64,000 nucleotides of DNA from a virus (Duplodnaviria; Heunggongvirae; Uroviricota; Caudoviricetes), in IMG/VR virus record IMGVR_UViG_3300043470_002422; one strand, given 5' to 3'. The translations under genes and the position numbers were made by a program. The stretch's first letter is position 1. Each line of letters opens with the position of its first letter. The notes below the pieces were generated by a model, which saw nothing but the letters and a program-made list of their open reading frames with translations, was not told where the DNA came from and did no database searches. This document shows, piece by piece, positions 22,254-64,000 of this stretch.

Positions 22254-22254
22254 A

Positions 22255-27361: not shown

Positions 27362-27541
27362 TTAAGAAAATGAAAATGAACCCAAAAGAAAAAGAATTGG
27401 AAAATATCCAATCCCAACAAAACCCTTCAAAAGAGGTTAATCCAACCGAGTCTGTAATAATAAAACAGATCGAGGATGATTTTGAATATCAAGAATATTA
27501 TTCAGAAAATTCTCCTAATTTCGACGTAGATTAATCAGGAG

Positions 27542-27556
27542 GACCGTATATTCAAT
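27542..27556 (+). promoter_or_regulatory. Class A variant GACCGTATATTCAAT
   Basis: Upstream of ATG 27572. Confidence 0.5.
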
Positions 27557-27571
27557 AAAATAATAAATATT

Positions 27572-39996: not shown

Positions 39997-40332
39997 ATGA
40001 ATCAAACAGTAAACCTACTTAAGACCGGATCCGAATATATTTTAGCTCTTCCGAGAGGGAAAAGACTAGAAAAAGGAGATTTTGCAATAGGGGTGTCCAA
40101 CTCTTATTCAAAGGTTTCTTCTGTTAAAGAAGGGGATTATTTTGATGCTAGAATTTACTATCTTGAAGATGGTAGCTGTCTAGTAAACCCAATTAAAATT
40201 GTGGGATTTGAATCCGATATAGATCCAGAGGTTCTAACAAAAATAAAGGAACTTAAAGAAGTTCCTTTGTATATCGAGATCGTAGAAAACCAGATCGTTC
40301 GTGAATCTGGTAAGATTAAAGTTATTTATTAA
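39997..40332 (+). CDS. hypothetical protein
   Basis: ORF whose stop is convergent with the minus-strand operon. Confidence 0.45.
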   Translation: MNQTVNLLKTGSEYILALPRGKRLEKGDFAIGVSNSYSKVSSVKEGDYFDARIYYLEDGSCLVNPIKIVGFESDIDPEVLTKIKELKEVPLYIEIVENQIVRESGKIKVIY

Positions 40333-42309: not shown

Positions 42310-42319
42310 TAGCTAGAAA

Positions 42320-51104: not shown

Positions 51105-51299
51105 ATGATTTTTATAGATTTAAAGAAGGAGAAATCTCTGGATTCAGCTTTAAAGAAGCTAAAAAATAAATTTTCTGAACGTAAGACAAAAGACGAACTT
51201 AACGAGAGAAGAGAATTCACCAAACCATCTGTGAGAAGAAGAAATCAAATAAGAGACGCAAAGTATAGGCAATCTATCCGTACGTCCGAGATAAATTAA
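51105..51299 (+). CDS. rpsU: phage-encoded ribosomal protein bS21 homolog
   Basis: LDSALKKLKNKFSERKTKDELNERREFTKPSVRRRNQIRDA compares to E. coli bS21 [41 protein letters not shown]. Confidence 0.6.
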   Translation: MIFIDLKKEKSLDSALKKLKNKFSERKTKDELNERREFTKPSVRRRNQIRDAKYRQSIRTSEIN

Positions 51300-51301: not shown

Positions 51302-52168
51302 TTGAAAAATATAATTCTATATGAGGAATTTTCCGACGGATTGAACCGTTTGAGATCGATTTTCGAATCTCTAGAATCAAATCCTATTGCTAACATAGAG
51401 GTTTATAACCGAAATATGGAAGCATCCTATCCGGATAAATTATTCTTTTTAGATATTATAAATCCGGATGTTATCGTAGATTTTGGGTGTGCAGACGGAA
51501 CGATCCTTTCCAAGATGAAGGAGAAAAATCCAGATGTTAAATTGATAGGATACGATCTTAGTAAAGCTATGCTTGCTAAAGCAAGAGCTAAACTAGGACC
51601 AGACGTTTTATTAACCGATTCTTGGAGTGAGGTTCAATCTGAATTGGAATCTTATGATAAACCAGCTCTTGTATTATCTTCGGTAATTCACGAAGTTTAT
51701 TCTTATTCTCATCCTAAAGAAGTTAAAAAATTCTGGGAGGATAGAGTATTTGGTGGAGACTTTAAATGGATAGTAATCAGAGACATGATTCCTTCTGTTG
51801 AAATGAGTAGAAAAGAAGCATCCGAATTCCAGGACGATGTTGACAAAGTTAAATCTGCGGCAGATCCAAAATACTTAAAGTCTTACGAAGAAAAGTGGGA
51901 TGATATTGGAAGCAGCTATAAATTCTTAGCTCACTTTTTACTAAAATATAAATTCACAGATAACTGGACTAGAGAAGTAGCAGAAAACTATCTTCCTCTT
52001 TCTCTTGAAACTCTATACAAGAAAATACCTCCGGGATATGAAATTATTTTTGAAGATAATTTTGTTCTTCCCTATCTAAAAAAAGAAGTCAAAAAGGACT
52101 TCGATGTAGACATTAAGCACACTACACATGCTAAAATGATTATAGAAAATAAAAATTTTGAAAAATGA
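51302..52168 (+). CDS. class I SAM-dependent methyltransferase with a CTS-like leader (MKNIILYEEF)
   Basis: Motif I VVDFGCADGT. Confidence 0.5.
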   Translation: MKNIILYEEFSDGLNRLRSIFESLESNPIANIEVYNRNMEASYPDKLFFLDIINPDVIVDFGCADGTILSKMKEKNPDVKLIGYDLSKAMLAKARAKLGPDVLLTDSWSEVQSELESYDKPALVLSSVIHEVYSYSHPKEVKKFWEDRVFGGDFKWIVIRDMIPSVEMSRKEASEFQDDVDKVKSAADPKYLKSYEEKWDDIGSSYKFLAHFLLKYKFTDNWTREVAENYLPLSLETLYKKIPPGYEIIFEDNFVLPYLKKEVKKDFDVDIKHTTHAKMIIENKNFEK

Positions 52169-52464
52169 AAAATCTAGCACTCTATGAATCTTTCACCGAA
52201 TCTTTAAACGAATCAAGAACAAGAAAGAATCTAATGCACGAACTTCTTAACATTCCAGAAGATAAAAAAATCTCTGACATTTATAAGAGCGGTAAGAAAT
52301 TAGCAGAAGAATTGGTTGCAGCAATCAAGAAGAGCAACATAGTTCCAGAAAAAGAGGTTCAGAAAAAAGCTACCTCGATGCTAGCCTTTGTTGGTAACTG
52401 GCCTAATGATCCTAAGAATTCCGTTTTTGATGTTGCTCTGAGACACGTCAAATCTCTCTTTTAA
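52165..52464 (+). CDS. small protein with a CTS-like leader (MKNLALYESF)
   Basis: Leader only. Confidence 0.45.
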   Translation: MKNLALYESFTESLNESRTRKNLMHELLNIPEDKKISDIYKSGKKLAEELVAAIKKSNIVPEKEVQKKATSMLAFVGNWPNDPKNSVFDVALRHVKSLF

Positions 52465-52499: not shown

Positions 52500-53255
52500 A
52501 TGATCAAAGATTCAGACATAGTTTTTGTTACCCCTTCTTTATCCACTAAATGGATAAATTATCAACAGAGTATATTAAAATCAAATTTTCCTGAAAGTTC
52601 CTTCATTGTCGTCGACGGAAGAGGGGGATGGCCAAAGTCCTGGTTTCTTTGGATAAATGAGGTTAAGAAAACAAATCAAAAATGGTATATCCATATCGAT
52701 GAAGATTGCTTCATCGAAAATAAATCTGAAGTAATTAAACTCCTTGAAAAAATGGAAATGGAAGATATTGGGATTTCTGCTATTTCTGAAGCATATTGTC
52801 ATTTCAGAGGAAACAATCCAGTAGCTTTCAACTCTTTCTTTTTGGCTGGTAGGGTTGAAGATTTGCAGCATGTCAATTTAGATATTAAAAATATCGATTT
52901 CAAATACGATGGACAAAATTGGAAGAATTCTTTAGGAATTCATTTTAAGAAAGAATATTTGGATGATTTCATATATCCTCACGATAAAATCTGGCCTCAT
53001 GATAATATAGAATCTGAATGCGAACCTTTTTATCTTTTCTGCTGGCTGATGAAGGAGAACAAAATAAAAATTCATTATCTTTACCCTTACTTTGATTCCA
53101 GATTTAAGTCAACCAATCCAAGGATTGAGAAAGATTCTCCTGACATAGCAATTCACATGTGGTACACTAGATTGTGCGACAGTCCTATGGACGTACACGG
53201 TCTTCCTAATAATGAAAGATATCGTAGATTGGAAGATTACCTTAATTCTAAATAA
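52500..53255 (+). CDS. hypothetical protein at the start of the glycosylation cluster
   Basis: ORF only. Confidence 0.45.
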   Translation: MIKDSDIVFVTPSLSTKWINYQQSILKSNFPESSFIVVDGRGGWPKSWFLWINEVKKTNQKWYIHIDEDCFIENKSEVIKLLEKMEMEDIGISAISEAYCHFRGNNPVAFNSFFLAGRVEDLQHVNLDIKNIDFKYDGQNWKNSLGIHFKKEYLDDFIYPHDKIWPHDNIESECEPFYLFCWLMKENKIKIHYLYPYFDSRFKSTNPRIEKDSPDIAIHMWYTRLCDSPMDVHGLPNNERYRRLEDYLNSK

Positions 53256-53292
53256 ATTCTAAATAAATTTGGATCTTTGATACATATTTTAT

Positions 53293-53514
53293 ATGCCAAA
53301 GAAAAAAATTAAGGAGGGGGAACTTTCTAGAAGAGAGCAAATGCTCATGAAAGAAAATGCTATCATCAAAGGAAAATTAGGATTTGCCCTTGGTGTATTG
53401 GAAACTGTTCAAATCTTAACTAGAAACGTAAGTCCTGAAATACTAGAGAAAAATCTGGAGCATCTGAGATTGACAATCCCGAGATCTCTAGAGGACCTTA
53501 GATCTGGTCTTTAA
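53293..53514 (+). CDS. small hypothetical protein
   Basis: ORF only. Confidence 0.4.
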   Translation: MPKKKIKEGELSRREQMLMKENAIIKGKLGFALGVLETVQILTRNVSPEILEKNLEHLRLTIPRSLEDLRSGL

Positions 53515-54068
53515 TCAACTTTAATCAGTTTAATTGTAGCACCTTTATATCCCTCTGCTTCTTTAGCAAGAGTTAAATTTTCTTGGCTATCATCAAAGAA
53601 AGTCAAATGCTTAAATCCTAAATCAATTAAATCTTTTATTGCTTCCTTTTTTCTATCTGCAATGGTTCCTTTATAACCATACTGAGGATCACTTATAGCA
53701 ATTACAAGTTGTGGATGTATGTCAATCCCATTTTCTAAAAAGAAGTCCCTCACGAGCTTGCTAGAGCTTCTAGCAGTCACAATAGCAACAGGGATTCCTC
53801 TCTTATAGTAGCTTTTGAGCTTGTTAAATATCTCATGGATAAATCTTCCCTGTCTTAGAATTTCAGGGTTTAGAAAATCCCCAAAATCCAGAACGTGCTT
53901 AGATGGTTTAGATTCGAATGTGTTGAATTCCTGAGGGGTTAAGGACTTGATAATTTTCCCGGTTTTTCTGTCTACAATTTTTATCTTTGCATCAGTTCTG
54001 ACAATAGTATCATCTAAATCAAAAATAACTAATCTGTTACCGGTATCTATTCCTTTAATTTCTATCAC
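53511..54068 (-). CDS. HAD-superfamily phosphatase
   Basis: Motif I FDLDDTIV, motif II VTARS, motif IV FFDDS. Confidence 0.55.
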   Translation of the reverse strand: MIEIKGIDTGNRLVIFDLDDTIVRTDAKIKIVDRKTGKIIKSLTPQEFNTFESKPSKHVLDFGDFLNPEILRQGRFIHEIFNKLKSYYKRGIPVAIVTARSSSKLVRDFFLENGIDIHPQLVIAISDPQYGYKGTIADRKKEAIKDLIDLGFKHLTFFDDSQENLTLAKEAEGYKGATIKLIKVD

Positions 54069-54096
54069 TCTTTGGGATAATTTCCCTTATATATTT

Positions 54097-54765
54097 TTAA
54101 ATTTTAACTTTTACGATTCTAGTTTTATCTGAGATCTTCCTTTCTTCTAAGATTTCATATTTTAGAGTTGTTAATCCATCCGAATTTATTTTTTCCATCG
54201 CATTTTTTTGCCCTTCAGGGGAGCTAAATGAGAAATATTTTTTAAGATTCTCGTCATATAAATCTTTGACAATATTTCTTTCGTGAGCTAACGATCTATA
54301 TCTTCCATTTTTCCTAGATGTTGGGATCCCATTTAAAATGCATCTCAACATAACGTCGTCATCCTCTGCTCCCCACCCCCAGTAATCGTTAGAATATCCA
54401 TTTGCCTTGATAAAGGAATGCTTATCGAAAATGGTAACCCCTCCGAAATACTTATGGTAAGGGAGTTTGTATCCAAATTGCTCCGCTTCAGCTGCTAAAT
54501 GGGTTGGATTCGGGGTATAAGTATAATCCGATGTTATTGGTAACATATCAACGTCATGGAAACAATAGTAATCTGCAGAAGGTGATTCAAGTGCTCCGAC
54601 GTTTAATAATTTTCCTCTGTTGAAAGGTTTATCGTCCTGTTCAACAATTACAATCTCGTAATCCAAATCCCTTAAGAATTCTGAATTCTCCATATGGGGA
54701 ACAAATTTTTTTAAATGTTCTTCTCTGTCCCTATATGGAACTATGATAGATAATTTTTTAGACAT
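54097..54765 (-). CDS. beta-1,4-galactosyltransferase-like (GT7 / GT-A) glycosyltransferase
   Basis: FNRGKLLNVG, HDVDMLP and WGWGAEDDD are hallmarks of the beta4GalT family. Confidence 0.6.
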   Translation of the reverse strand: MSKKLSIIVPYRDREEHLKKFVPHMENSEFLRDLDYEIVIVEQDDKPFNRGKLLNVGALESPSADYYCFHDVDMLPITSDYTYTPNPTHLAAEAEQFGYKLPYHKYFGGVTIFDKHSFIKANGYSNDYWGWGAEDDDVMLRCILNGIPTSRKNGRYRSLAHERNIVKDLYDENLKKYFSFSSPEGQKNAMEKINSDGLTTLKYEILEERKISDKTRIVKVKI

Positions 54766-54842
54766 CAGATATTTTAGTTCATACTTTTGTTAAAGTTTCC
54801 GAAACATTATTCTTCTTCCCCGGTATAATTTTAAATTATTCT

Positions 54843-55691
54843 ATGATTTATTTTAGAAGCATCGGCTACATGGGAAGGCTTGGAAATCAGATGTTCCAGC
54901 TTGCTTCAACAGTAGGAATAGCAAAAGAAAGAGGATTTGGTGCCGGAATTCCTATTGAGAATTGCACCAGAAAAATTGGAAGCGGACCAATTGACGTTAA
55001 AACCGGATTACAGACGAATGTTAAGTGCGATCTTTTAGATTGTTTCAATATCCCGTCAAAATATTTAATTCCGTTCAGTGAGGTAAAACCTCAGTACATT
55101 TACTACGAGGGGGATTTTAAATTCAATCCTCAGGTTCTATCTTTGGAACCATATACAGATTTATCTGGATACTTTCAAACCGAGGAATATTTTAAAAAAT
55201 ATAGGGAAGAAATTCTAGAAATCTTTACTTTTAAAAAAGAAGATGAAGAAGAAGCAAGAAATTTTCTATTAGAGAAGGTTCATTCTCTATCATCAAATAA
55301 GAATGTAATTTCTATTCACGTAAGAAGGGGGGATTATACGCTATATCCAAACCATCATCCGGTTTGTTCCGATGACTATTATAAATCTGCAATTGAAAAA
55401 TTCGATCTAAAAAATTCTGTGTTTCTAGTTTTTTCTGACGATATCGAATGGTGCAAGAAAAAATTTGAAGGAGACAGTTTTATATTTTCAGAAACTAACA
55501 ATCCATATGTGGATCTTGCAATTATGACAATGTGTGACCATCACATTATTGCAAACTCTTCTTTTAGCTGGTGGGGTGCCTGGTTAAATAGATCTAAGGA
55601 CAAGAGAGTTATAGCTCCTTCCAGATGGTTTGGTCCTTCTTTACCTAAAGACACGAGTGACATATATTGCGAGGGATGGGAAATAATATGA
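54843..55691 (+). CDS. alpha-1,2-fucosyltransferase (GT11)
   Basis: N-terminal GRLGNQMFQLA and C-terminal HHIIANSSFSWWGAWL motifs. Confidence 0.65.
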   Translation: MIYFRSIGYMGRLGNQMFQLASTVGIAKERGFGAGIPIENCTRKIGSGPIDVKTGLQTNVKCDLLDCFNIPSKYLIPFSEVKPQYIYYEGDFKFNPQVLSLEPYTDLSGYFQTEEYFKKYREEILEIFTFKKEDEEEARNFLLEKVHSLSSNKNVISIHVRRGDYTLYPNHHPVCSDDYYKSAIEKFDLKNSVFLVFSDDIEWCKKKFEGDSFIFSETNNPYVDLAIMTMCDHHIIANSSFSWWGAWLNRSKDKRVIAPSRWFGPSLPKDTSDIYCEGWEII

Positions 55692-56446
55692 GCAACAACT
55701 TCTTTTCCATAACGATAAACACCTTTAATCACGAGAATTGGATAGAGGGATGTCTATACAGCTGTTTAAACCAGGATTATGATAACTTTGAAGTTATCGT
55801 TATAGACGACATTTCAACCGATAAGACTTTTGAGATATGCTCCAGGATACAAAAAGAATTTCCAGGAAAATTAAGAGCTATAAGAAATGAGAATAAAATA
55901 TTCTCGCAGGTCCGAAATATTCTAGAGCTCACTCTTCTTTCTAAGGAAAATTCTATAGTGGTTTCTGTCGATGGGGATGATTGTTTAAAAAACAACCAGG
56001 TTCTAAAAAAACTAAATGAGGTCTATAATTCCGGAGAAGTCTGGATGACCTATGGAAGATATGAAGAATATCCTTATAACGACGTTTCTGGAAGTTATTA
56101 TGCTTACCCAGATCATATAATACAAGGAAATTTATTTAGGGAATACAGATGGATGGCTTCTCATCTAAGAACTTATAGAAGAGAATTGTTTTTGAAAATC
56201 AAGGAAGAGGACTTTAAATTACCCGATGGTGAATGGCTTGACGTAACAGGGGATCAGGCATTTATGCTTCCAATGTTGGAGATGTCAAAAGAGAGAAGCA
56301 GATTTATTCCTGATATTCTTTATGTTTATAACGTAGCTAATCCCACAAGGGACGGAGCAACTAAAGTTCATAGACAAGAAGAGGTAGCAAGATACATTAG
56401 ATCAAAAGAAAAATACACCAGATTAGAAACATTAAATGAAAGATAA
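55688..56446 (+). CDS. GT2-family glycosyltransferase
   Basis: FSITINTFNHE...VIVIDDISTD...VSVDGDD, a GT-A fold with DxD. The ATGA start and stop overlap. Confidence 0.55.
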   Translation: MSNNFFSITINTFNHENWIEGCLYSCLNQDYDNFEVIVIDDISTDKTFEICSRIQKEFPGKLRAIRNENKIFSQVRNILELTLLSKENSIVVSVDGDDCLKNNQVLKKLNEVYNSGEVWMTYGRYEEYPYNDVSGSYYAYPDHIIQGNLFREYRWMASHLRTYRRELFLKIKEEDFKLPDGEWLDVTGDQAFMLPMLEMSKERSRFIPDILYVYNVANPTRDGATKVHRQEEVARYIRSKEKYTRLETLNER

Positions 56447-57131
56447 ATTTTTTATGGCTATTCTTTCTCATAAGGGAAGTAAGCACAGGGATGAACAAAA
56501 AAAACATCTCCTAGAAACAAACAACGGTGATATTATATTCTATTATTTTATAGGAGATTTAAATCTAGACTCGGAATATAAAGTAGACGAAGAGAACAAA
56601 ATAGTCTATCTAAAAGTTCCTGATAACTACGAATCTCTTCCCTTAAAAACACAAGCAGCTGTTTCTTTTGTGAATGAAAATTATTCCGACTCGATTAAAG
56701 GAATGATAAAAACAGACGATGATATAGAACTGGATATCGAAAAGATTTATTCTTGCCTTTCTATTCACGGAGATAAAGATTATTTTGGAATAGTTACACA
56801 GATAACTAACCCTGAAAACGTATCGACCTGGCACATGGGAAAATGTGAATCCGCAGAGATGAATAGAACCCCAGTAAGAGTTCCTCTTTGTACCTATTGT
56901 GGTGGTGGAGGATATTACTTAAGTAAAGAATCTATCTCTAAAATTTCCCAATCAAAGGAAAAATATTCCACCATGGTATTTGAAGACGCAGCTACCGGAT
57001 ACGTTTTAAATTCATTTGGAATCTATCCAACGTTTATTCACATGGGACAGAATGGATTCGATTGGCCTAATATGGTACCTCCTTCTCCTCCAGAATCTAA
57101 GGTTCAAGTCAATCCAATGTTAATAAGATAA
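56436..57131 (+). CDS. Fringe-like / GT31 beta-1,3-glycosyltransferase-like protein
   Basis: KTDDDIELD and CTYCGGGGYYLSKE. Confidence 0.5.
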   Translation: MKDKFFMAILSHKGSKHRDEQKKHLLETNNGDIIFYYFIGDLNLDSEYKVDEENKIVYLKVPDNYESLPLKTQAAVSFVNENYSDSIKGMIKTDDDIELDIEKIYSCLSIHGDKDYFGIVTQITNPENVSTWHMGKCESAEMNRTPVRVPLCTYCGGGGYYLSKESISKISQSKEKYSTMVFEDAATGYVLNSFGIYPTFIHMGQNGFDWPNMVPPSPPESKVQVNPMLIR

Positions 57132-57132
57132 G

Positions 57133-57816
57133 ATGATATCAATTTGTATACCTTGTTACGAGATGCACGGGAGAGGAAAGGATTTTCTAGACTTTAATTT
57201 GGAAAAAATTAAAGAACAGACCTATCAAGACTTTGAAGTTGTAATTTCAGACCACAGCCAAAACGAGGAGATTAAATCTGTATGCGAGAAATATTCATCA
57301 TTGGGTATGGATGTTAAATATTTTAAAAACGAAAATAATAGGGGGAATTCCTCTAGTAATATTAATAATGCAATTTCTAATTCTACTGGTGAAATAATTA
57401 AAATTATTTTCCAGGACGATTTTCTATATCACATTAATTCTCTAAAAGAAATAAGAGATTCTTTTTCTTCTAATGATATAGACTGGCTGGTAACAGCTTC
57501 TTGTCACACTACAGATGGAATTAACTTCGAGAGATTTTATTATCCAAGATATACAGAAGACATTATGACGGGGAATAATTTAATAAGCTCTCCGAGTGTT
57601 TTAAGTTTTAAAAATACCGGAGATGTTTGGTTTGACTCAAATTTAATCTGGCTAATGGACTGCGATATGTACAAAAGACTCTATATGAGATATGGGGATC
57701 CTTTCTATTTAAATCGAATTAATGTTGTTAACAGAACTTGGGAAGGTCAGTATAATAATCACATCCCTTGGGAAAGAAAAAAATGGGAAATAGAATACGG
57801 GAGACATAAATACTAA
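57133..57816 (+). CDS. GT2-family glycosyltransferase
   Basis: ISICIPCYE...EVVISDHSQ...IFQDDF. Confidence 0.5.
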   Translation: MISICIPCYEMHGRGKDFLDFNLEKIKEQTYQDFEVVISDHSQNEEIKSVCEKYSSLGMDVKYFKNENNRGNSSSNINNAISNSTGEIIKIIFQDDFLYHINSLKEIRDSFSSNDIDWLVTASCHTTDGINFERFYYPRYTEDIMTGNNLISSPSVLSFKNTGDVWFDSNLIWLMDCDMYKRLYMRYGDPFYLNRINVVNRTWEGQYNNHIPWERKKWEIEYGRHKY

Positions 57817-57832
57817 TAATATATAAAATAAA

Positions 57833-58396
57833 ATGAATAATTTAGAACAAATTTACCTTAATAAATGCGCTACTGCATTAGACATCAACGAGCATTTACC
57901 TACTTTAAGGAGATACACAGAAGAATGCGACGTTGTTATCGAAATGGGGGTTAGAAGCATAGTTTCAACCTGGGCTTTTTTACTAGGGCAGCCAAAAAAA
58001 TTAATCTCTGTGGACATCGTTCATCCTAAAACTTATATCAATCATGACCCGTCTGGATGCAATTTAGATTTGGTTTATGAAATTGCAGAAGAGAGAGAAA
58101 TTGAATTTGAATTTATAGAGTCAGATACCTTAAAAATGGATCCCATTGAATGTGATTTTTTATTCATCGATACCCTTCATGATTACGATCAACTAAAGGA
58201 AGAATTAAGAATCCATTCGCCTTCTGTTAAAAAATACATAGGCCTTCACGATACAGAAACTTTTGCAATCAAAGGAGAAACCCCAGGAAAAGAAGGAATC
58301 TGGAGAGCAGTGGAGGAATTCCTATCTGAAGGAGAATGGAGAATTGGAGAAAGGTTTACAAACAATAACGGACTTACTATTCTATCTAGGATTTAA
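57833..58396 (+). CDS. class I SAM-dependent methyltransferase (Methyltransf_24-like)
   Basis: VIEMGVRSIVSTWAFL...FIDTLHDYD. Confidence 0.45.
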   Translation: MNNLEQIYLNKCATALDINEHLPTLRRYTEECDVVIEMGVRSIVSTWAFLLGQPKKLISVDIVHPKTYINHDPSGCNLDLVYEIAEEREIEFEFIESDTLKMDPIECDFLFIDTLHDYDQLKEELRIHSPSVKKYIGLHDTETFAIKGETPGKEGIWRAVEEFLSEGEWRIGERFTNNNGLTILSRI

Positions 58397-58418
58397 TGAA
58401 CAACCCCCGAAATAAGAT

Positions 58419-59084
58419 ATGCTTAAACTAGAAAACGTAACTCTCATAGCTTTAACAAGCGTTAGAATCCCTCAGACAATAAAAGCTCTGGAATATAGTT
58501 GCAGGGGAATCCAATTTGGAGATGTTAAATTAGCTTCCGATATAAAACCAGAAAATTTACCTGCTTTCATAAAACATGAGTATACCGAAAGAAGTTCAAA
58601 TATTGATGAGTGGAATTATAATATAATTTATAATCTATCCAAACATATAGAAACAGATTATGCAATTCTCATTCACGATGATGGTTTTATAGTAAATCCG
58701 GAATCTTGGAGGAATGAATTTTTAGAATATGATTACATAGGAGCTCCTTGGGCTTTACCTTCAGATGATTATTCGTACCGTGATATAAATGGAGAAATCG
58801 TTCGCCAGGGAAATAGTGTTTCTCTAAGAAGTAAAAAATTAATAGATATTCCAAATAAATTAAATCTGGAATGGAAGTCTTTCTATGGATTTACAAATGA
58901 AGACGGATTTATATGTGCGCATTATAGGCATAGGTATATAGAAGAAGGATGTAAATTTGCAGACATTGATGTTGCCAAATACTTCTCACACGAAACAATG
59001 ATACCAGAAATAGAAGGAATAAAACCATTTGCATTTCATAGACACTTTGGTACCAATTCGATTTACCCTAATTATGGAAGATAA
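58419..59084 (+). CDS. hypothetical protein (putative glycosyltransferase-associated)
   Basis: ORF within the cluster. Confidence 0.4.
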   Translation: MLKLENVTLIALTSVRIPQTIKALEYSCRGIQFGDVKLASDIKPENLPAFIKHEYTERSSNIDEWNYNIIYNLSKHIETDYAILIHDDGFIVNPESWRNEFLEYDYIGAPWALPSDDYSYRDINGEIVRQGNSVSLRSKKLIDIPNKLNLEWKSFYGFTNEDGFICAHYRHRYIEEGCKFADIDVAKYFSHETMIPEIEGIKPFAFHRHFGTNSIYPNYGR

Positions 59085-59763
59085 AGAATTGGTGATATCC
59101 GCTTATGATAAACCAATCGATTGGTTGTCGTTAATTGATGATAATGTTAAAAAAACAATTTATCGAAAGGGAAATGCACTCCCATTGTCTAGTGGTGAAA
59201 TTTTAATTGAACCAAATATTGGCAGATGCGTACATAGTTTTTTCAATCATATTAAAAATAATTATTACAATTTATCCGATTATACATTTTTTGCTCAGGA
59301 TTACCCATTTGATCATTGGGAAGATTTAATCTATGTTGTTAATGGTAATATTGAAACCTTTATAAATCGTTCAGCATTGAATATTGGTGGGTATTATGGA
59401 TATCACTTTAATACTATTAAGGTTCCCTCAGAAAGAGGGGGGGTAATGCACACGATGCATCCGTCACAGCATCACGGGAAAGGTAATGTAATCTCCTGTT
59501 ATAGCAACGGGATGCCTCATGACCACAATCCAAATATCAACGTTGATGTGTACTGGGATTTATTATTTGATGAACCCAGGCCAAATATGTATGAATTCAT
59601 ACCAGGGGGTCATTTCGGAATATCCAAAGAACATGTTCATTTAAGATCCCTTGATTTTTATATAAAAGTGACTTCTTTATTGGAAGAAAACGAAACAGCC
59701 CCGTGGTTAATTGAAAGACTTGAATGCTACATATTTAATTCAAAATACAAGACAAAATTATGA
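59074..59763 (+). CDS. hypothetical protein
   Basis: Likely ATG at 59074 (MEDKELVISAYD). The ORF track starts at an upstream alternative codon. Confidence 0.4.
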   Translation: MEDKELVISAYDKPIDWLSLIDDNVKKTIYRKGNALPLSSGEILIEPNIGRCVHSFFNHIKNNYYNLSDYTFFAQDYPFDHWEDLIYVVNGNIETFINRSALNIGGYYGYHFNTIKVPSERGGVMHTMHPSQHHGKGNVISCYSNGMPHDHNPNINVDVYWDLLFDEPRPNMYEFIPGGHFGISKEHVHLRSLDFYIKVTSLLEENETAPWLIERLECYIFNSKYKTKL

Positions 59764-60620
59764 GTAAAGTACAAATAATTTCTATTTTTGATAAACATGA
59801 AGATTTTATTAAATTACAATATGAGAGTATTGTAAATCACGTTGAAGGAGATTATGAATACATTATTTTTAATAATGCTTCTGATGAATTGCAAGCAATT
59901 CAAAATAAAAAAATGTGTGAAGAATTAGATATCAAATGTATTAGAATTCAAGTTAACTACAACTTAGACCCATCAAATATTGCTGGGGCTGCTCTTAACG
60001 AAGCTTTTAGTTATTTTTCAGAAGAATCAGTTTTTAAAATTGATTCTGATATGTTTTTTATTTCAAATATTAACCTGACTGAACTTTTTGAATCTTCAGA
60101 CCTGATATACATACCAAATTATGTTCTGGGCTTGGAAATCATGTGGAGTGGTGTTTTTGGGATAAATATGAAAAAAATTGATATCTCATTAAATTTTAAG
60201 CCAAGCGTTATACCACAAACAGACACGTTTGACCAGTCATCATTATTGACAAAAAATAACAAATATATTAAAAAAATATTTAAACTATATTCTATTCAAA
60301 ATATAACGGATAATGTTGTTATTTCTTCTTTAAATAATGATTGTGGAATCTATATAAAGGACAATGAAATAATATTCAACGAAAAGCCAGAATATTATTC
60401 AGATAAAGAAACCTTGGTAAATTTAAATGATAAAATTTTGGGGATTTTAAATATTATGAAATTATATGAATTTCCAGTACCATACAATGTAGATATGATT
60501 GAAATTAACGGGGTTAATTTCATGTTTCATTTTAAATCCTCTAATTGGTGTCCCTGGTATACAGACCAATATGTTACACTAAAAAAAGACTCCTTAATAA
60601 AATACTTAAAAAATAATTAA
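59760..60620 (+). CDS. hypothetical protein (putative glycosyltransferase)
   Basis: The ATGA start and stop overlap. Confidence 0.4.
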   Translation: MSKVQIISIFDKHEDFIKLQYESIVNHVEGDYEYIIFNNASDELQAIQNKKMCEELDIKCIRIQVNYNLDPSNIAGAALNEAFSYFSEESVFKIDSDMFFISNINLTELFESSDLIYIPNYVLGLEIMWSGVFGINMKKIDISLNFKPSVIPQTDTFDQSSLLTKNNKYIKKIFKLYSIQNITDNVVISSLNNDCGIYIKDNEIIFNEKPEYYSDKETLVNLNDKILGILNIMKLYEFPVPYNVDMIEINGVNFMFHFKSSNWCPWYTDQYVTLKKDSLIKYLKNN

Positions 60621-61436
60621 ATGAAGAAAAAAATAGCATTGGTGACAATGGCAAAAGATGAAGACTTGTATATTCAAGAGTGGATCGATTATCATTTGAA
60701 ATTAGGATTTGATAGTATATTCATCTATCAAAACAATTGGAGATTTAATAGTGAAGACTTGGATGAAAGAGTTCATCTTTTAGAGTGGGATATAGATTCC
60801 CCAGGTGATATGGATAACACCCCATGGTTATCAAATAGAATTGCTATGGCTTACACTCATTTTGGAAAAACATATCACGATCAATTTGAATGGGCTGCTT
60901 TTATTGATGTCGACGGGTTTCTGGTATTGAAGCAAACGAACGATGTCAAAGAGTTTATTGCTAAATTTGACAACGTTCCCCAAAGACAAGTTGTAATCAA
61001 TCTAGCACAATTTGGTGATAATGGTCATACCGAGTTTGATCCGAACAACGCAAGTGTATTGGAAAGATTTACTAAAAGATGGGGTAAACCTTATACTCAC
61101 ACCTACTATCATGTTGGACCAATATGCAAATTACACGAAAACTTTGATAAGCATGGGGTTCATATGGTACACGATGAAGAATGGATTGATGTAGATGGTG
61201 TAGTAGGCATAGGTACTTCAACTATTTTGAATTGCTCAAGAAAGGTATCATACGATACAGCACAACTAAACCACTATTATACAAAGACTCTACCAGAATG
61301 GCTTAATAAATGTAATAGAACTCGTCCAGAGGGTGATCAGTATAGGAGTACGATTGAAGGTTTTTTTGAACACAACCACAACGATGTAGAAGACTTTCAT
61401 GCTTTAAACTTTTTTAGAAATCAACAAACTTTGTAG
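60621..61436 (+). CDS. GT-A-fold glycosyltransferase (GT92/DUF23-like)
   Basis: VTMAKDEDLYIQEWIDYHLKLGFDSIFIYQNN and FIDVDGF. Confidence 0.45.
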   Translation: MKKKIALVTMAKDEDLYIQEWIDYHLKLGFDSIFIYQNNWRFNSEDLDERVHLLEWDIDSPGDMDNTPWLSNRIAMAYTHFGKTYHDQFEWAAFIDVDGFLVLKQTNDVKEFIAKFDNVPQRQVVINLAQFGDNGHTEFDPNNASVLERFTKRWGKPYTHTYYHVGPICKLHENFDKHGVHMVHDEEWIDVDGVVGIGTSTILNCSRKVSYDTAQLNHYYTKTLPEWLNKCNRTRPEGDQYRSTIEGFFEHNHNDVEDFHALNFFRNQQTL

Positions 61437-61439
61437 ATT

Positions 61440-62180
61440 ATGGATATTATAAATACAAATTTGAATGTGCAAAAGATTAGTGATCCGTATGATATATGGA
61501 TTATTGATAATTTTTTAAAAGAACATACTTTGAAAGGTATTAAAGATGCATGGCCATCTTATGAAAATGATGCTTGGTATGTTGGACACCCTGAAATAGA
61601 CGGTAAAAAGAATATATTAGAACAGGGTATGCTAGGAATTAGTAAAGTAGGGGAAATGCCTGAATTCATTAGCAATGTTATGAGTTATATCCACACAAAA
61701 GAGTTTACAGAAAGGATATCTAACCTTTTAAATTTACAAAACCTATTTCCAGATGAGCATATGAGATGGTCAGGTATGAGAACAATGCTTCCAAATTCAT
61801 TCCAATTGATTCATAGTGATGCTAGAAAATCACCTAATTCAGGAATGCGTAAAGAGGTAACTTGTTTATTGTATCTGAATGAGAACTATAATAAAGAAAA
61901 TGATGGCGGTTGTTTAGAAGTCTGGTCCGATGATATGTCAACTTGTATGCATGAAATTGAACCTATCTCAAATAGGTTTGTTGCTTTTTTAAACAGCGAT
62001 ACTTCCTACCATGGTGTACCAACTGTAAAATCAGAAAGAAAGTTAATTACATTCTCTATTTTAGCAAATGATAGTTCTACCGATCGATATAAAGCTCTAT
62101 TCGTTGCAAGACCTACCGATTCTGTTGAAGTTGGAATCGAAGGTGTTAAAAGGTCACAAATAAAAGATATTAAAAAATAA
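61440..62180 (+). CDS. 2-oxoglutarate/Fe(II)-dependent oxygenase (prolyl-4-hydroxylase-like)
   Basis: HSD...YHGV facial triad spacing. Confidence 0.5.
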   Translation: MDIINTNLNVQKISDPYDIWIIDNFLKEHTLKGIKDAWPSYENDAWYVGHPEIDGKKNILEQGMLGISKVGEMPEFISNVMSYIHTKEFTERISNLLNLQNLFPDEHMRWSGMRTMLPNSFQLIHSDARKSPNSGMRKEVTCLLYLNENYNKENDGGCLEVWSDDMSTCMHEIEPISNRFVAFLNSDTSYHGVPTVKSERKLITFSILANDSSTDRYKALFVARPTDSVEVGIEGVKRSQIKDIKK

Positions 62181-62184
62181 AAAT

Positions 62185-63330
62185 ATGGAAGTAAAAAATT
62201 ATCCTATATTCAAGGTTCATGTCGATGTAGATGGAGCTTTAGAAAATTTAAAAACGGTATTAACTAGTGGTTTTTTGAATGAAGGTGAGTGCGTAACACA
62301 ATTTACCGATTTTTTAAATAATTATCTAAACCATAAAAATGTAGTTTTATTAAATAGCTGTACATCAGCACTTACGTTAGCATTAAAATTGGCTGGGGTT
62401 TCTCCTAATGATGAAGTTATTACGACGTCGATGACGTGTGTTGCTACTGTCACCCCAATATCTAATTTAGCAGCAAAAGTAGTTTGGTGTGATATTGATT
62501 ACAAAACAGGAAACATAGACCCGTTGAAGATAGAGTCATTAATCACCAAAAAAACCAAAGCTATTCTGTGTGTGAATTGGGCTGGTATTCCGTGTGATTT
62601 GGAAATGCTACAAGCAATCTGCAAAAAACATGGCATCAAACTTATACAAGATGCAGCACATTCCTTTGGCGCAAAGTATAATGGAGAGTCCATATGCCAC
62701 TATGCAGACTATACTTGTTTTAGTTTTCAAGCTATTAAGCATATAACTACCGGGGATGGAGGAGCTTTGATCTGCAAATCTGAACAGGATTTTGAAAGGG
62801 CTAAAAAATTAAAATGGTTTGGTATTGATAGAGATGCTACTAAAAATGAAAAGGGTGAGTGGAAAGGTCAGAGATGGGAAGTAAATATATTGGAAGCTGG
62901 ATATAAGTTTCATATGAATAACGTATCGGCTGCTATTGGATTGTCCCAAATTCCCCATATTGATAACATAATACAATCTCACATCGATAATGCAAATATT
63001 TATGATAATTTATTTAAAGACAATCCACACATAAAACCTTTAAAAATTAATAAAAATACACAACCGACATATTGGGTATACACTGTAATACTGGATGAAA
63101 GTATTAATCGTAATGATGTTTTAGAAAAAATGAACAAACAAGGCATAGCTGCAGGGTTAGTACATATTCCATGTGATGGATATCAGTGTTTTGAAGATAG
63201 TAAAACAGACCTACCACATACAAAGTATTTTTACGAGCATCAGCTATCTCTTCCGTGTGGGTGGTGGTTAAATTCAGAAGATATTAATTTCATAACCAAT
63301 ACACTAATTAAAATTCTACACAATGAATAA
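62185..63330 (+). CDS. DegT/DnrJ/EryC1-family PLP-dependent sugar aminotransferase
   Basis: NSCTSALTLAL and QDAAHSFGAKY. Confidence 0.65.
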   Translation: MEVKNYPIFKVHVDVDGALENLKTVLTSGFLNEGECVTQFTDFLNNYLNHKNVVLLNSCTSALTLALKLAGVSPNDEVITTSMTCVATVTPISNLAAKVVWCDIDYKTGNIDPLKIESLITKKTKAILCVNWAGIPCDLEMLQAICKKHGIKLIQDAAHSFGAKYNGESICHYADYTCFSFQAIKHITTGDGGALICKSEQDFERAKKLKWFGIDRDATKNEKGEWKGQRWEVNILEAGYKFHMNNVSAAIGLSQIPHIDNIIQSHIDNANIYDNLFKDNPHIKPLKINKNTQPTYWVYTVILDESINRNDVLEKMNKQGIAAGLVHIPCDGYQCFEDSKTDLPHTKYFYEHQLSLPCGWWLNSEDINFITNTLIKILHNE

Positions 63331-64000
63331 CATTCACAGTACTTCATTCATAGATCCATATATTCAGCTCGGAAAATTTAATCACGTTGGGAAAAATGTA
63401 CAAATCAAGTACCTTGACGAAAATAACAAGCCATCCGTTGTAATCGGAGATAATAACATTATCAACGATAATACAAGAATCTTAATAGGGGAAAATCCAC
63501 TGAGTATAGGAGATTGGAATGTTTTTCATAACGACATGCTAGTTATGGTTGGTAAAAAGATTGACATTGGTCATAATTGTTGGTTCGGTCAAAATACAAT
63601 TTTAGATGGATCCGGAGGACTTTCTATAGCTAACGGGGTTAGAGTTGGAATGTATTCTCAAATATGGACACACGTTGCTAGCGGTGAATTAATAGAGGGA
63701 TGCTTATTGTTTGGAGACAGTAAGACAAACATCGAAGACGATGTTTGGTTAGTTGGAAGCTGTACAGTTTCTCCAGGGGTTTGTTTAAGAAAAAAATCAG
63801 TTTTTTTAATAGGATCCATAGTAACAAAGGACTCGGAAATCGAAAAGGTATACTCAGGAACACCAGCCACTATTAATGATAAAATAAAAGCTTGGAAAGA
63901 GATCTATCCTGTTGATAAATTAAAAATGCTACTTGAATGGAGTGAGATTTTTTGTATCGGTAAAAAATACGAAATTGACAATCAAATCGAATCGGGATAC
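63323..64000 (+). CDS. left-handed beta-helix (hexapeptide-repeat) acetyltransferase, 3' partial
   Basis: Not in the ORF track because it runs off the window. ATG 63323 overlaps the DegT stop. Repeats include VVIGDNNII, ILIGENPLSIGD and ANGVRVGMYSQI. Confidence 0.55.
   Translation, partial: MNNIHSTSFIDPYIQLGKFNHVGKNVQIKYLDENNKPSVVIGDNNIINDNTRILIGENPLSIGDWNVFHNDMLVMVGKKIDIGHNCWFGQNTILDGSGGLSIANGVRVGMYSQIWTHVASGELIEGCLLFGDSKTNIEDDVWLVGSCTVSPGVCLRKKSVFLIGSIVTKDSEIEKVYSGTPATINDKIKAWKEIYPVDKLKMLLEWSEIFCIGKKYEIDNQIESGY

Follow-up and report, generated by a model that had tools for sequence, protein, structure and literature searches.

Chloroviruses (PBCV-1 A64R and others) and Mimiviridae encode the glycosylation of their own virions, the Mimiviridae making fibril glycans through viosamine, bacillosamine and rhamnose pathways, and these viruses pair soluble glycosyltransferases with nucleotide-sugar pathways in which a 4,6-dehydratase, an aminotransferase and an acetyltransferase lead to amino-deoxy sugars of bacterial type. 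Among phages, mycobacteriophage glycosyltransferases and methyltransferases modify phage structural proteins in the cytoplasm, according to the work of Freeman et al. (2023) as cited in PMC12619734. In jumbo cyanomyoviruses (P-SSM2, S-SCSM1, S-SCSM2R), "LPS" or cell-wall clusters have been catalogued (Iyer et al., 2021, PMC7824862; PMC12801897), and comparable clusters of jumbo phages have been inferred to modify host polysaccharide (PMC7824862). Moraphages, large aquatic phages with predicted Flavobacteriia hosts and phylogenetically near Lak phages, encode chaperones and, in at least 80% of them, four putative glycosyltransferase families; the account of these phages makes no mention of ClpB, NAMPT or a type IX secretion system (PMC12619734). 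The island described here extends the set of polysaccharide clusters known from cyanophages and jumbo phages.

Phage identity and extent of the island

The stretch analysed (the window, 64,000 nucleotides) appears from its genes to belong to a large lytic phage related to viral contigs of 90-434 kb. The host is probably a member of the Bacteroidota, one clue being that the phage encodes a protein in which a signal peptide is combined with a CHU_C type IX secretion domain. It is scarcely credible that the window is instead a bacterial chromosome segment with a capsule or O-antigen locus, or giant-virus DNA. Such an origin would fit the lack of any tRNA, terminase or capsid gene among those found in the window, its host-like genes (ClpB, bS21, NAMPT and the type IX secretion cargo) and the occurrence of some GT7 relatives in MAG bins. 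However, one window gene product is homologous to a protein annotated as structural in the virions of jumbo phages (Tenacibaculum, Lak, Erwinia), the window matches many PHROG-only families, UvsX-like and DnaB-like genes lie downstream of the island, IMG/VR holds a contig identical to the window, and there is synteny with viral contigs of 373-434 kb on which the virion-protein homologue and the GT7 island co-occur. Bacterial housekeeping operons are also lacking, and gene packing is dense, with the stop codon of one gene often overlapping the start codon of the next.

The island comprises about 23 genes over about 17 kb, predicted to serve the synthesis of rare sugars and their linkage into a complex glycan (Table 1). 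It begins at about 51.3/52.5 kb and ends at a point equivalent to about 69 kb, and therefore extends beyond the window end, continuing for about 5 kb in contig L007, on which the downstream extension is based and which agrees with the window at every one of the 4558 nt that the two share. Spacing between genes within g07-g18 is -56 to +22 nt, with no terminator-like site on the + strand in that interval, and on this basis the island genes look like one operon. No cluster enzyme contains a hydrophobic 19-mer above 1.6, and profile searches matched none of them to the Wzx, Wzy, phosphoglycosyl-transferase or ligase families and revealed no flippase, polymerase or initiating transferase in the cluster; all island enzymes appear to be soluble, forming a self-contained machinery that would work in the infected cell's cytoplasm. 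The flanks consist of host-takeover genes (ClpB, bS21, NAD salvage) on one side and replication genes (UvsX, DnaB) on the other, and no structural gene adjoins the island.

Table 1. Genes of the island, with window coordinates, predicted products and supporting scores or motifs.
Gene	Position	Strand	Predicted product	Support
g01	51302..52168	+	class I SAM methyltransferase	Methyltransf_12 34.5 bits (cutoff 30)
g02	52165..52464	+	99-aa protein	no Pfam family
g03	52500..53255	+	GT-A fold glycosyltransferase	family without Pfam model
g04	53293..53514	+	conserved 73-aa protein	
g05	53511..54068	-	HAD-superfamily phosphatase	DLDDT motif I; HAD_2 20.7 bits, TIGR01681 26 bits, both under curated cutoffs
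g06	54097..54765	-	GT7 beta-1,4-galactosyltransferase-like catalytic domain	Glyco_transf_7C 82 bits, 7N 65 bits
g07	54843..55691	+	GT11 alpha-1,2-fucosyltransferase-like	Glyco_transf_11 122 bits; HVRRGDY motif
g08	55667..56446	+	GT2	Glycos_transf_2 66 bits
g09	56436..57131	+	GT31, beta-3-glycosyltransferase type	Galactosyl_T 57 bits; DDD motif
g10	57133..57816	+	GT2	Glycos_transf_2 59 bits
g11	57833..58396	+	probable SAM methyltransferase	Methyltransf_24 15 bits, under cutoff
g12	58419..59084	+	DUF5672 protein, possibly glycosyltransferase	DUF5672 44 bits; IHDDGF motif
g13	59029..59763	+	DUF3431 protein; likely start 59074	37 bits
g14	59760..60620	+	weakly GT2-like	Glycos_transf_2 19 bits, under cutoff; DSD motif
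g15	60621..61436	+	GT-A glycosyltransferase	Glyco_tranf_2_4 38 bits; GT92 23.4 bits (cutoff 23)
g16	61440..62180	+	Fe(II)/2OG oxygenase, linked to nucleotide-sugar module	2OG-FeII_Oxy_3 54 bits
g17	62185..63330	+	PLP-dependent sugar 4-aminotransferase (DegT; PseC/PglE-like)	DegT 326 bits
g18	63323..64000	+	left-handed beta-helix acetyltransferase; cut by window end, 289 aa in L007	Hexapep 28 bits
g19	beyond window end (L007)		PseB/PglF-like 4,6-dehydratase	PseB model 262 bits, Polysacc_synt_2 268 bits
	beyond window end (L007)		second GT11	
	beyond window end (L007)		GT17	
g22	beyond window end (L007)		E1-type 3-dehydrase	268 bits to Yersinia E1
g23	beyond window end (L007)		RmlD-like reductase	

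Across the related loci the position is fixed and the core conserved, whereas the periphery varies. ClpB (68-78% identity), g04, GT7 (56-61%) and GT11 (45-56%) are syntenic in at least seven of them, and the relatives keep the ClpB-bS21-GT7-GT11 edge while other enzymes take the place of the remaining island genes, the downstream replacements including GMD, GT6, GT10, GT25, FkbM methyltransferases and UDP-Galp mutase. Homologues of g04 (44-46%) adjoin GT7 in eight related viral loci, those of g05 (64-67%) are found in L013-L016, and those of g02 (51-52%) hold the equivalent position in L013 and L018. The methyltransferase gene g01, a variable accessory gene at the left edge, has no homologue in the related loci.

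Predicted enzymes and their distribution

A preliminary description had placed a contiguous glycan-biosynthesis cluster of this phage at 52500-64000; the cluster is there, its enzyme identities backed by profile searches, but g01 lies upstream of that interval and the L007 genes downstream of it. Pfam supports the GT7 (beta4GalT-like), GT11, two GT2 and GT31 transferases that had been proposed, and the 2OG/Fe(II) oxygenase, the DegT-family sugar aminotransferase and the hexapeptide-repeat acetyltransferase, the last also matched by many NCBIfam models and PDB left-handed beta-helix acetyltransferases, were recovered as named. Other assignments stood in part. GT31 membership of g09 was upheld while its likeness to Fringe was not, there being no PF02434 match; the "GT92-like" g15 is a GT-A enzyme whose GT92 score lies so near the cutoff (Table 1) that this assignment is therefore borderline, and it has no sequence match in the PDB. 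Only one of two HAD phosphatases is present in the cluster (g05, with its motif and sub-cutoff scores), and of two SAM methyltransferases one is g01, outside the interval, and the other the weakly matching g11. A homologue of g11 (50%) adjoins an SDR-2OG pair in L101, and L121 has a gene with a weak Methyltransf_24 match that is comparable to g11 by position only. A DUF5672 protein and a DUF3431 protein had been missed, as had the GT-A enzyme g03, whose fold neighbours include the protein-glycan enzymes Fringe, PBCV-1 A64R, LH3 and mimivirus R699.

The GT7 enzyme g06 (222 aa, with no hydrophobic segment and neither membrane anchor nor stem) matches human B4GALT1 at 141 bits (E 3e-40, 38% identity over 203 residues) and keeps the DVD and WGWGAEDDD motifs, whereas g07 is 40-41% identical to cyanophage GT11s (P-SSM2, S-CAM9). 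That GT7, GT11 and GT31 are rare in phages held for two of the three: tblastn gave zero matches to GT7 and GT31 in 50,697 deposited phage records, but GT11 matched 103 and is common in cyanophages. GT17 occurs in 7 phage records, the island copy being 32% identical to Synechococcus phage GT17s. The view that GT7 is typical of animals and giant viruses was not borne out, as it was found at 31 IMG/VR loci and 53 loci in bacterial genomes, with 6,076 cluster representatives of which more than 150 score above human B4GALT1; g06 belongs to a large, environmental clade of stand-alone domains of about 205-235 aa. Bacterial chromosomes carry homologues of GT7 and of the 2OG-SDR pair, the Prochlorococcus copy lying among rml and GT41 surface-glycan genes. 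The suggestion of a distinct origin for 59-63 kb from a GC content of around 30% was overstated, and the argument is weak: GC is 0.320 there, 0.331 in the whole cluster and 0.365 (sd 0.023) at 21-52.5 kb, and the GC3 ranges of the cluster genes (0.21-0.34) and the other genes (0.25-0.42) overlap, truly low GC being confined to one gene, g14 (0.254, the cluster minimum).

Two nucleotide-sugar modules can be proposed. In one, the g19 dehydratase, g17 aminotransferase and g18 acetyltransferase would convert UDP-GlcNAc to a 2,4-diacetamido-2,4,6-trideoxyhexose, and in the other the g22 dehydrase and g23 reductase would yield a 3,6-dideoxyhexose, both sugars, like the linkages considered below, being predicted at family-level specificity only. 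The PglE/PglD-like reading of the DegT-hexapeptide pair holds, and the missing PglF/PseB-type 4,6-dehydratase, g19, is encoded just past the window end. The catalytic Lys of g17 is present in SFQAIKH, and g22 has the His-for-Lys substitution and the Cys motif; PseB, PseC and RfbH model scores are all under equivalog cutoffs (for PseC, 284 bits against 423). In the sequence available (window and extension) there is no PglC-type initiating transferase, nonulosonate synthase or E3, and likewise no cytidylyltransferase or CDP-glucose dehydratase. The g16 oxygenase may then tailor the trideoxyhexose, with an outcome that is not predictable. Its fold is prolyl-hydroxylase-like; however, its conserved neighbours are sugar-nucleotide enzymes, and it therefore lends no real support to a protein acceptor.

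Possible targets of the glycan

The best reading, a tentative one to which a probability of roughly 0.4 may be given, is that virion proteins are decorated by a glycan assembly line in the cytoplasm. Nine to twelve glycosyltransferases (GT7, two GT11s, two or three GT2s, GT31, GT17, the GT92-like enzyme, the new GT-A family and perhaps the DUF5672 and DUF3431 proteins) would assemble a hetero-oligosaccharide, in which the GT7 and GT11 pair may build a Fuc-alpha1,2-Gal-beta1,4-type motif, and one or two methyltransferases would decorate the product. This glycan would be joined directly to virion proteins, as in chloroviruses, mimiviruses and mycobacteriophages, and the swappable part of the island could give related phages differing glycan types. 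In all lytic viruses known to us with a tested multi-gene soluble glycan pathway (chlorovirus, mimivirus, mycobacteriophages), the target is the virion. No protein-initiating glycosyltransferase or acceptor protein was identified. The position of the island between host-takeover and replication genes, with no structural neighbour, counts against virion decoration, as do the homologues on bacterial chromosomes and the surface-glycan surroundings of the Prochlorococcus copy.

Nearly as likely is a remodelling of the host envelope, in which the phage transferases and sugar modules would modify undecaprenyl-linked O-antigen, capsule or Bacteroidota general O-glycan intermediates, and host flippases and ligases would export the altered glycan; the changed surface of the infected cell might, for example, block superinfection or keep progeny from adsorbing to debris. 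Bacterial O-antigen and capsule pathways normally employ soluble glycosyltransferases that act on lipid-linked acceptors. The chromosomal homologues just mentioned, the location among early, host-takeover-type genes and the hypervariability at a fixed locus fit this possibility, as does the type IX secretion cargo protein, by which the phage therefore places products on the cell surface, and jumbo cyanophage clusters have been interpreted in the same way from inter-phage polymorphism (PMC7824862; PMC12801897). However, transmembrane segments are absent from all cluster enzymes, the island lacks a Gtr-type membrane protein and an ABC exporter as well as an initiating phosphoglycosyl transferase, flippase, polymerase and ligase, and 9-12 glycosyltransferases with two de novo sugar pathways amount to a whole new oligosaccharide rather than a modification, which host Wzx and ligase would have to accept. 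We know of no experimental demonstration of such a role for any lytic phage cluster of this kind. There is an outside chance that the island yields not a surface glycan but a secondary metabolite or another glycoconjugate, soluble or linked to lipid, a secondary-metabolite reading being raised by Iyer et al. for a second cyanophage cluster with 2OG oxygenases, HAD phosphatases and O-methyltransferases (PMC7824862), but oligosaccharide-chain-type transferases dominate the present cluster, which lacks an exporter and any aglycone-building enzyme (PKS, NRPS, halogenase, carbamoyltransferase). Glycosylation of hydroxymethylated phage bases, evading restriction, is more improbable still. The DNA glycans described to our knowledge are short (one to few sugars), made by few glycosyltransferases and without diamino- or dideoxy-sugar pathways. 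In favour, genes for nucleotide metabolism and for an N6/N4 DNA methylase occur in the window, the more distant relatives L098 and L099 have two thymidylate-synthase homologues close to their ClpB-SDR-2OG genes, and diverse glycans are indeed placed on 5hmC and 5hmU DNA by GT-A and GT-B enzymes of phages (bioRxiv 10.1101/2023.12.21.572611). However, such pathways normally cluster with a 5mYOX/TET and C5-methyltransferase pair or a ThyS-like hydroxymethylase (bioRxiv 10.1101/2023.12.21.572611), and neither these nor a TET/JBP or thymidylate-synthase-like gene was found in profile searches of most ORFs of at least 100 aa in the window and the ten larger ORFs of the extension. Because these searches revealed no base-hydroxymethylation gene, DNA appears the least likely of the three targets (virion proteins, host surface, DNA) named in the preliminary description.

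Comparison with known systems

Like chloroviruses and Mimiviridae, the island combines soluble virus-encoded glycosyltransferases with nucleotide-sugar pathways; however, those viruses infect eukaryotes and their glycans are demonstrated on capsid or fibrils, whereas the window appears to belong to a tailed phage, and its enzymes resemble theirs at fold level only (7-12% identity). The mycobacteriophage systems, as cited, comprise few genes, in a different host phylum and with different glycosyltransferase families, and virion glycosylation has been demonstrated there by experiment. The sugar modules follow bacterial pathways, g19 being PseB-like, g17 PseC-like and g18 a left-handed beta-helix enzyme like PglD (Pgl/Pse: PglF/E/D, PseB/C/H), and g22 resembling the Yersinia E1 of the CDP-3,6-dideoxyhexose pathway (E1/RfbH), with the difference that a 2OG oxygenase is tightly linked here. 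With the animal Golgi enzymes B4GALT1 and B4GALT7, g06 shares both Pfam halves and the DVD and WGWG(A/G)EDDD motifs, and it conserves the Tyr that selects UDP-Gal in B4GALT1 (in LPYHKYFGG), although it has no cytoplasmic tail, membrane anchor or stem. Moraphages, as described, resemble the present phage in their aquatic metagenomes, predicted Bacteroidota host, nearness to Lak phages, glycosyltransferase families and chaperones (PMC12619734). The cyanomyovirus clusters are likewise large multi-gene blocks in lytic phages, polymorphic among relatives, with SDR epimerase/dehydratases, DegT enzymes, HAD phosphatases, methyltransferases, 2OG oxygenases and many soluble glycosyltransferases of several families (GT2, GT10, GT11, GT25). 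In contrast to them, the present island has a host that is probably a member of the Bacteroidota rather than a cyanobacterium, contains GT7, GT31 and an unannotated GT-A family, and occupies a fixed locus beside ClpB/bS21 with a conserved GT7-GT11 core.

Content and extent of the glycan island

Co-oriented soluble sugar-nucleotide enzymes and 9-12 glycosyltransferases stand together in a large phage, in a dense gene array that ORF calling places from ~51.3 kb to the window end (genes g01-g18, in window order). Metagenome contigs with exactly identical proteins were found, the longest on record with these genes measuring 126.8 kb, and contig L007, identical to the window across all 4558 shared bases, continues past the window end with the complete 289-aa hexapeptide transferase (g18), a 4,6-dehydratase (g19), a divergent second GT11 (g20), a GT17 (101 bits), a second DegT-family protein (g22) and an RmlD-like reductase (g23). 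On the basis of this continuation the island, which the preliminary description had put at 12 kb between 52500 and 64000, is therefore ~17 kb long, with ~23 genes. On its 3' side lie a 702-aa peptidoglycan-binding protein and, further on, a UvsX-like recombinase and a DnaB-like helicase. Within the window the island genes run on the plus strand, save g05 and g06 on the minus strand, and from g07 to g18 the intergenic spacing is -56 to +22 nt with no terminator-like site on that strand within the stretch, an arrangement that fits a single operon. A sigma-70 scan, which does not cover Bacteroidota-type promoters, returned promoter-like sites at the shuffled expectation, and terminator-like sites were fewer than expected, with none at an operon boundary.

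Features of the window with their positions, strands and profile matches
Feature	Position (nt)	Strand	Remarks
1697-aa protein	15814-20907	+	signal peptide (MAQKYLSKALAFALTLFATQGNLHA|AC), PKD domains (8 matched stretches), C-terminal CHU_C type IX secretion sorting domain
PRPP synthetase	21303-22253		nucleotide-NAD block (21303-29101)
PurA/PurZ-like adenylosuccinate synthetase, short (352 aa)	24516-25574		phrog_1211; best PDB match E. coli PurA
NAMPT	27572-29101		nucleotide-NAD block
MoxR-type AAA ATPase (517 aa), then DUF2201_N metallopeptidase-domain and KOW-motif protein	40329-43873	-	
bS21 homologue (64 aa)	51105-51299	+	Ribosomal_S21, 41 bits
g03	52500-53255	+	no Pfam family
g05, HAD	53511-54068	-	below threshold; DLDDT motif
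g06, GT7	54097-54765	-	Glyco_transf_7C 82 bits, 7N 65 bits; cutoffs 23 and 27
g07, GT11	54843-55691	+	Glyco_transf_11, 122 bits
GT2	55667-56446	+	66 bits
g09, GT31	56436-57131	+	Galactosyl_T (PF01762), 57 bits; DDD motif
GT2	57133-57816	+	59 bits
g14	59760-60620	+	GC 0.254
g15, GT-A enzyme	60621-61436	+	Glyco_tranf_2_4, 38 bits
g16, 2OG oxygenase	61440-62180	+	2OG-FeII_Oxy_3, 54 bits
g17, DegT aminotransferase	62185-63330	+	326 bits
g18, hexapeptide transferase	63323 to window end	+	28 bits

Pfam searches bear out most of the enzymes named in the preliminary description, namely GT7, GT11, both GT2 enzymes, the 2OG oxygenase, the DegT aminotransferase and the hexapeptide transferase. Its "Fringe-like GT31" holds as a GT31, and the Fringe label was dropped, as g09 has no PF02434 match at E<=0.1. 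The "GT92-like" g15 stands as a GT-A enzyme; its GT92 score is borderline (23.4 bits against a cutoff of 23), the Glyco_transf_92 match covers only profile positions 15-141 of 249, and Glyco_tranf_2_4 fits better. Of the two HAD phosphatases claimed, one was found; as for a second, the HAD_SAK_2 match belongs to an ORF scanned outside the cluster. One of the two claimed methyltransferases begins at 51302, upstream of the 12-kb region, and the other is weak (15 bits). The GDP-fucose motif HxRRxD is present in g07 as HVRRGDY, and g20 (32 bits) has a divergent FRGGEY motif. The GC content, given previously as ~30% at 59-63 kb, measured 0.320 there and 0.331 over the whole cluster, against 0.365 +/- 0.023 at 21-52.5 kb. 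The distinct origin read from it was overstated, since GC3 in the cluster genes (0.21-0.34) overlaps that of other window genes (0.25-0.42) and only g14 is truly low in GC; foreign origin on this ground was rejected.

Transferase families and sugar-nucleotide modules

The GT7 enzyme g06 shares 38% identity with human B4GALT1 over 203 residues, with conservation of HDVDMLP (including the metal-binding DVD), WGWGAEDDD and LPYHKYFGG with its UDP-Gal-selecting Tyr; HDVDMLP and WGWGAEDDD do not vary across the phage family alignment. The protein is 222 aa long, its residue 4 aligns to residue 66 of the B4GALT1 crystal construct, and its maximum 19-residue hydropathy is 0.18. To judge by this alignment, g06 is a minimal beta-4-galactosyltransferase catalytic domain of predicted activity, without anchor or stem, in contrast to animal GT7 enzymes, which have a type II membrane topology with an N-terminal anchor and stem. 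GT7, GT11 and GT31 had been described as typical of animals and giant viruses and rare in phages. As far as deposited phages go, rarity holds for GT7 and GT31, with zero matches in 50,697 records, but not for GT11, with 103 matches in the same records, mostly from cyanomyoviruses; GT17 has 7, in Synechococcus phages and a 642-kb uncultured phage. Relatives of GT7 were found at 31 IMG/VR loci and at 53 loci in bacterial genomes, many of them single-cell genomes of SAR11 (30-36% identity), and a library of 1.84 billion proteins contains 6,076 cluster representatives of the family, of which more than 150, many of them stand-alone proteins of ~205-235 aa, outscore human B4GALT1 against the phage protein. 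The family label was right, but the phage enzyme falls in a large microbial and viral clade, and g06 is, on this distribution, evidently not a recent import from an animal or giant virus. A Pfam census around the bacterial homologues was mixed (GT1, GT2, GT4, ABC transporters, housekeeping genes) and not decisive for role, and a literature search on phage GT7 or fucosyltransferase clusters in huge phages returned nothing specific. Some GT7 relatives (loci L027-L041) have a second architecture: at 470-495 aa they are longer, resemble GT7 over the N-terminal 150 residues, and are encoded in tandem, as two or three paralogues, on viral contigs 30-310 kb in length.

The structure model of g03 (pLDDT 94.9) predicts a GT-A fold, its nearest fold neighbours being Manic Fringe (top), PBCV-1 A64R, the LH3 GT domain and mimivirus R699. 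The protein belongs to a family of ~254-aa proteins (P0121-P0220) that has no Pfam model and whose contigs reach 577 kb; its homologues lie inside glycan islands in both contexts inspected, the related loci L120 and L121. Comparison by hhalign of DUF5672 (g12) and DUF3431 (g13) with the g03 and GT7 profiles gave probabilities below 2%, so neither protein was assigned to a family of transferases.

The PglE/PglD-like steps proposed earlier for the aminotransferase and acetyltransferase are upheld by the contiguity of g17 and g18 with the dehydratase g19. The latter matches Polysacc_synt_2 at 268 bits and TIGR03589 (PseB) at 262 (cutoff 407.75); in g17 the catalytic Lys is retained, and its score is 284 against the PseC cutoff of 423.5. 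These three enzymes are predicted to convert UDP-GlcNAc into a 2,4-diacetamido-2,4,6-trideoxyhexose by the classical dehydratase/aminotransferase/acetyltransferase route. The scores, being below the equivalog cutoffs, do not fix the stereochemistry. No nonulosonate synthase or Bac_transf (PglC-type) match was found in the cluster. In g22, which matches Yersinia E1 at 268 bits and the RfbH model at 364 against a cutoff of 423, His replaces the PLP Lys (SFYPAHHI) and the 2Fe-2S Cys motif WGRDCYC...TC is conserved with Yersinia E1, features that identify it as a putative E1-type sugar 3-dehydrase, not an aminotransferase. Together with the reductase g23 it points to a 3,6-dideoxyhexose. In the sequence available (window plus extension), E3, a cytidylyltransferase and a CDP-glucose 4,6-dehydratase are absent; so are any nucleotidyltransferase and GDP-mannose dehydratase, and host precursors would therefore be needed.

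The 2OG oxygenase g16 has the HxD...H iron triad and the 2OG-binding basic residue in a DSBH fold of OGFOD1/PHD-like type, and its 245-aa family shows 46-74% identity across 219 homologues. In 18 of the 22 other loci, the homologue stands beside a g17-like DegT gene (52-81% identical) and/or a Polysacc_synt_2 dehydratase. One such locus is on the chromosome of Prochlorococcus sp. MIT 0916, among rml and GT41 surface-glycan genes, and most of the remaining loci are IMG/VR viral contigs of 7-193 kb; on phage-like contigs of 255-265 kb the g16 homologue overlaps the dehydratase gene directly after ClpB. Because these neighbourhoods consist of sugar-nucleotide enzymes, g16 is placed with the sugar module, and the idea that prolyl hydroxylation hints at a protein acceptor was dropped. 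We conclude that oxygenase, aminotransferase and dehydratase form a conserved sugar-nucleotide module, a separate lead to new sugar chemistry. In two more distant relatives (L098 and L099, contigs of 255-265 kb), two thymidylate-synthase homologues flank the ClpB, dehydratase and 2OG genes, along with a ClpP protease gene and a small CHU_C ORF, and L099 has a collagen-repeat protein as well; one of the thymidylate-synthase copies could be a base hydroxymethylase.

The phage genome and related islands

By its gene content the window is a large phage: its ORFs match several PHROG families; one of its proteins is homologous to an annotated virion structural protein from Tenacibaculum jumbo phages, which occurs also in Lak and Erwinia jumbo phages; and auxiliary genes of the large-phage kind are present (NAMPT, PRPP synthetase, a PurA/PurZ-like enzyme, a ClpB-like ATPase, MoxR with DUF2201, bS21). 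Megablast of the region against phage records found no deposited phage similar at the DNA level. An identical contig is present in IMG/VR, which also speaks for a phage, and was the only one returned by single-sequence scans with g16 and with the 702-aa downstream protein. The 1697-aa protein is likely cargo of a host secretion system, and its CHU_C domain is the clue to a probable Bacteroidota host. If the PurA-like enzyme is a PurZ, 2-aminoadenine DNA would be implied. Elsewhere in the window, ORFs match NADAR, nucleoside 2-deoxyribosyltransferase-like, MTHFR, Macro, polyA/CCA polymerase head and HAD_SAK_2 domains. The pair of MoxR and DUF2201_N/KOW genes is kept in the related locus L121, and a VWA-like DUF2201 domain is matched by one scanned ORF, possibly the adjacent 40329-41291. 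Two peptide motifs recur within 5679-11110, 38341-39453 and 51302-52464: '[LM]xDL[EDA][DGE]VGL' stands at the extreme C-terminus of three ORFs and, in variant form, of a fourth, and three more have it near the N-terminus; the motif 'MK[HN][IL]xx[YF]xxF[ES]' begins several ORFs, including g01 and g02. Paralogy of these ORFs could explain the motifs, as could a signal for targeting or cleavage that they have in common. GC is unusually high (0.47-0.48) in the ORFs at 5-9 kb, which also contain LRR-like repeats of 22 aa.

The bS21 gene lies between the ClpB-like gene and the island, an arrangement repeated in L121. The left edge is syntenic in at least 7 related loci on viral contigs of 110-434 kb and on an 89-kb metagenome contig, with the order ClpB, bS21 (where annotated), g03 (some loci), g04, GT7 and GT11, and with identities of 68-78% for ClpB, 56-61% for GT7 and 45-56% for GT11; the virion-protein homologue and the GT7 island occur together on four IMG/VR contigs of 373-434 kb, further evidence of a phage. 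Downstream, the relatives differ (GDP-mannose dehydratase, epimerases, GT6, GT10, GT25, GT47, FkbM methyltransferases, nucleotidyltransferases, UDP-galactopyranose mutase), and three of them (L013, L118 and L121) have different subsets of the window's genes in common. The syntenic edge and the differing downstream genes describe a glycan island that keeps a fixed position, conserved in its core and hypervariable elsewhere. In L014, L017-L020 and L120, animal-type GT6, GT10 and GT47 (exostosin) enzymes occur with GT25, GDP-mannose dehydratase and UDP-galactopyranose mutase.

Proposed nature and destination of the glycan

The model that can be constructed proposes that the island enzymes build a complex hetero-oligosaccharide, which may contain a di-N-acetylated amino-deoxy sugar, a dideoxyhexose, Gal, Fuc or a related deoxyhexose, and O-methyl groups. 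Going by family-level specificity, the GT7 and GT11 pair would form a Fuc-alpha1,2-Gal-beta1,4 motif, which GT6 and GT10 of the relatives may extend; these four families, if their predicted activities hold, would be an enzyme set for blood-group- or Lewis-like structures.

As to where such a glycan goes, phage (virion) proteins are the favoured target, tentatively and with a probability of roughly 40%. This reading is preferred because the machinery is self-contained and cytoplasmic and because every membrane step of envelope polysaccharide export is missing: in g01-g23, no Pfam family match was found to an initiating phosphoglycosyl transferase, flippase, ABC exporter, polymerase or ligase, no protein has a hydrophobic 19-mer >=1.6 (transmembrane grade), and the membrane components of a Wzx/Wzy- or ABC-dependent O-antigen/capsule locus are lacking. 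It is preferred also because the virion is the target in those lytic viruses in which such a pathway was tested, always so to our knowledge (chloroviruses, mimiviruses, mycobacteriophages). Alternatively, the enzymes may remodel host-envelope glycans by way of host lipid-linked pathways, a scenario considered almost as likely, as the genes around the island are of host-takeover and replication type rather than structural, the phage has a further gene for a protein predicted to be surface-secreted, and the same inference has been published for analogous jumbo-phage clusters (PMC7824862; PMC12801897). DNA is a very improbable acceptor. Glycosyltransferases that act on DNA normally cluster with TET (5mYOX) and C5-methyltransferase genes, or with ThyS-like genes (bioRxiv 10.1101/2023.12.21.572611), and hypermodification is so poorly rated because a profile search of most window ORFs >=100 aa and ten larger extension ORFs found no Tet_JBP or Thymidylat_synt match. 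The number of glycosyltransferases and the rare-sugar modules, moreover, exceed what is seen in any DNA glycan that we know of, these having fewer transferases and no such modules. The island offers a defined test case, with a fixed locus by ClpB/bS21, a conserved GT7-GT11 core and exchangeable cassettes across phages of 90-434 kb, and its enzymes are soluble and should be easy to express.

That lytic phages have large glycan clusters of many genes has been clear from sequence ever since cyanomyovirus genomes first appeared, and we know of no such cluster whose target has been demonstrated. Polysaccharide clusters of jumbo cyanophages, including their polymorphism, have been described computationally, with SDRs, DegT, several GT families, HADs, methyltransferases and 2OG oxygenases (PMC7824862), and as its make-up is the same, the present island belongs to a known kind of phage cluster. 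Worth recording are the presence of GT7, GT31 and the unannotated GT-A family, which are absent from deposited phage genomes, the probable Bacteroidota host, the fixed locus with its conserved GT7-GT11 core and the recurrent 2OG/aminotransferase/dehydratase module. A glycan on the cell would give direct evidence of the surface remodelling that lytic phages have long been assumed to perform. If instead it sits on virions, large aquatic phages would join giant viruses and mycobacteriophages as viruses that encode complex protein glycosylation, and the island would be a source of anchor-free GT7, GT11, GT17 and GT31 enzymes.

A bolder proposal, unlikely as a whole, is that the virion may be coated with a eukaryote-like fucosylated Gal-beta1,4 glycan (blood-group- or Lewis-like in the GT6/GT10 relatives), made in the cytoplasm by anchor-less Golgi-type transferases, with the swappable half of the island setting a strain 'glycotype'. 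Such a glycan could bait SusC/D-type glycan-capture systems of the Bacteroidota host, and the 2OG module, which Prochlorococcus and numerous marine viral contigs also have, might supply an undescribed nucleotide sugar. Mimivirus has a glycan coat, and the bait glycan would be its proposed phage counterpart.
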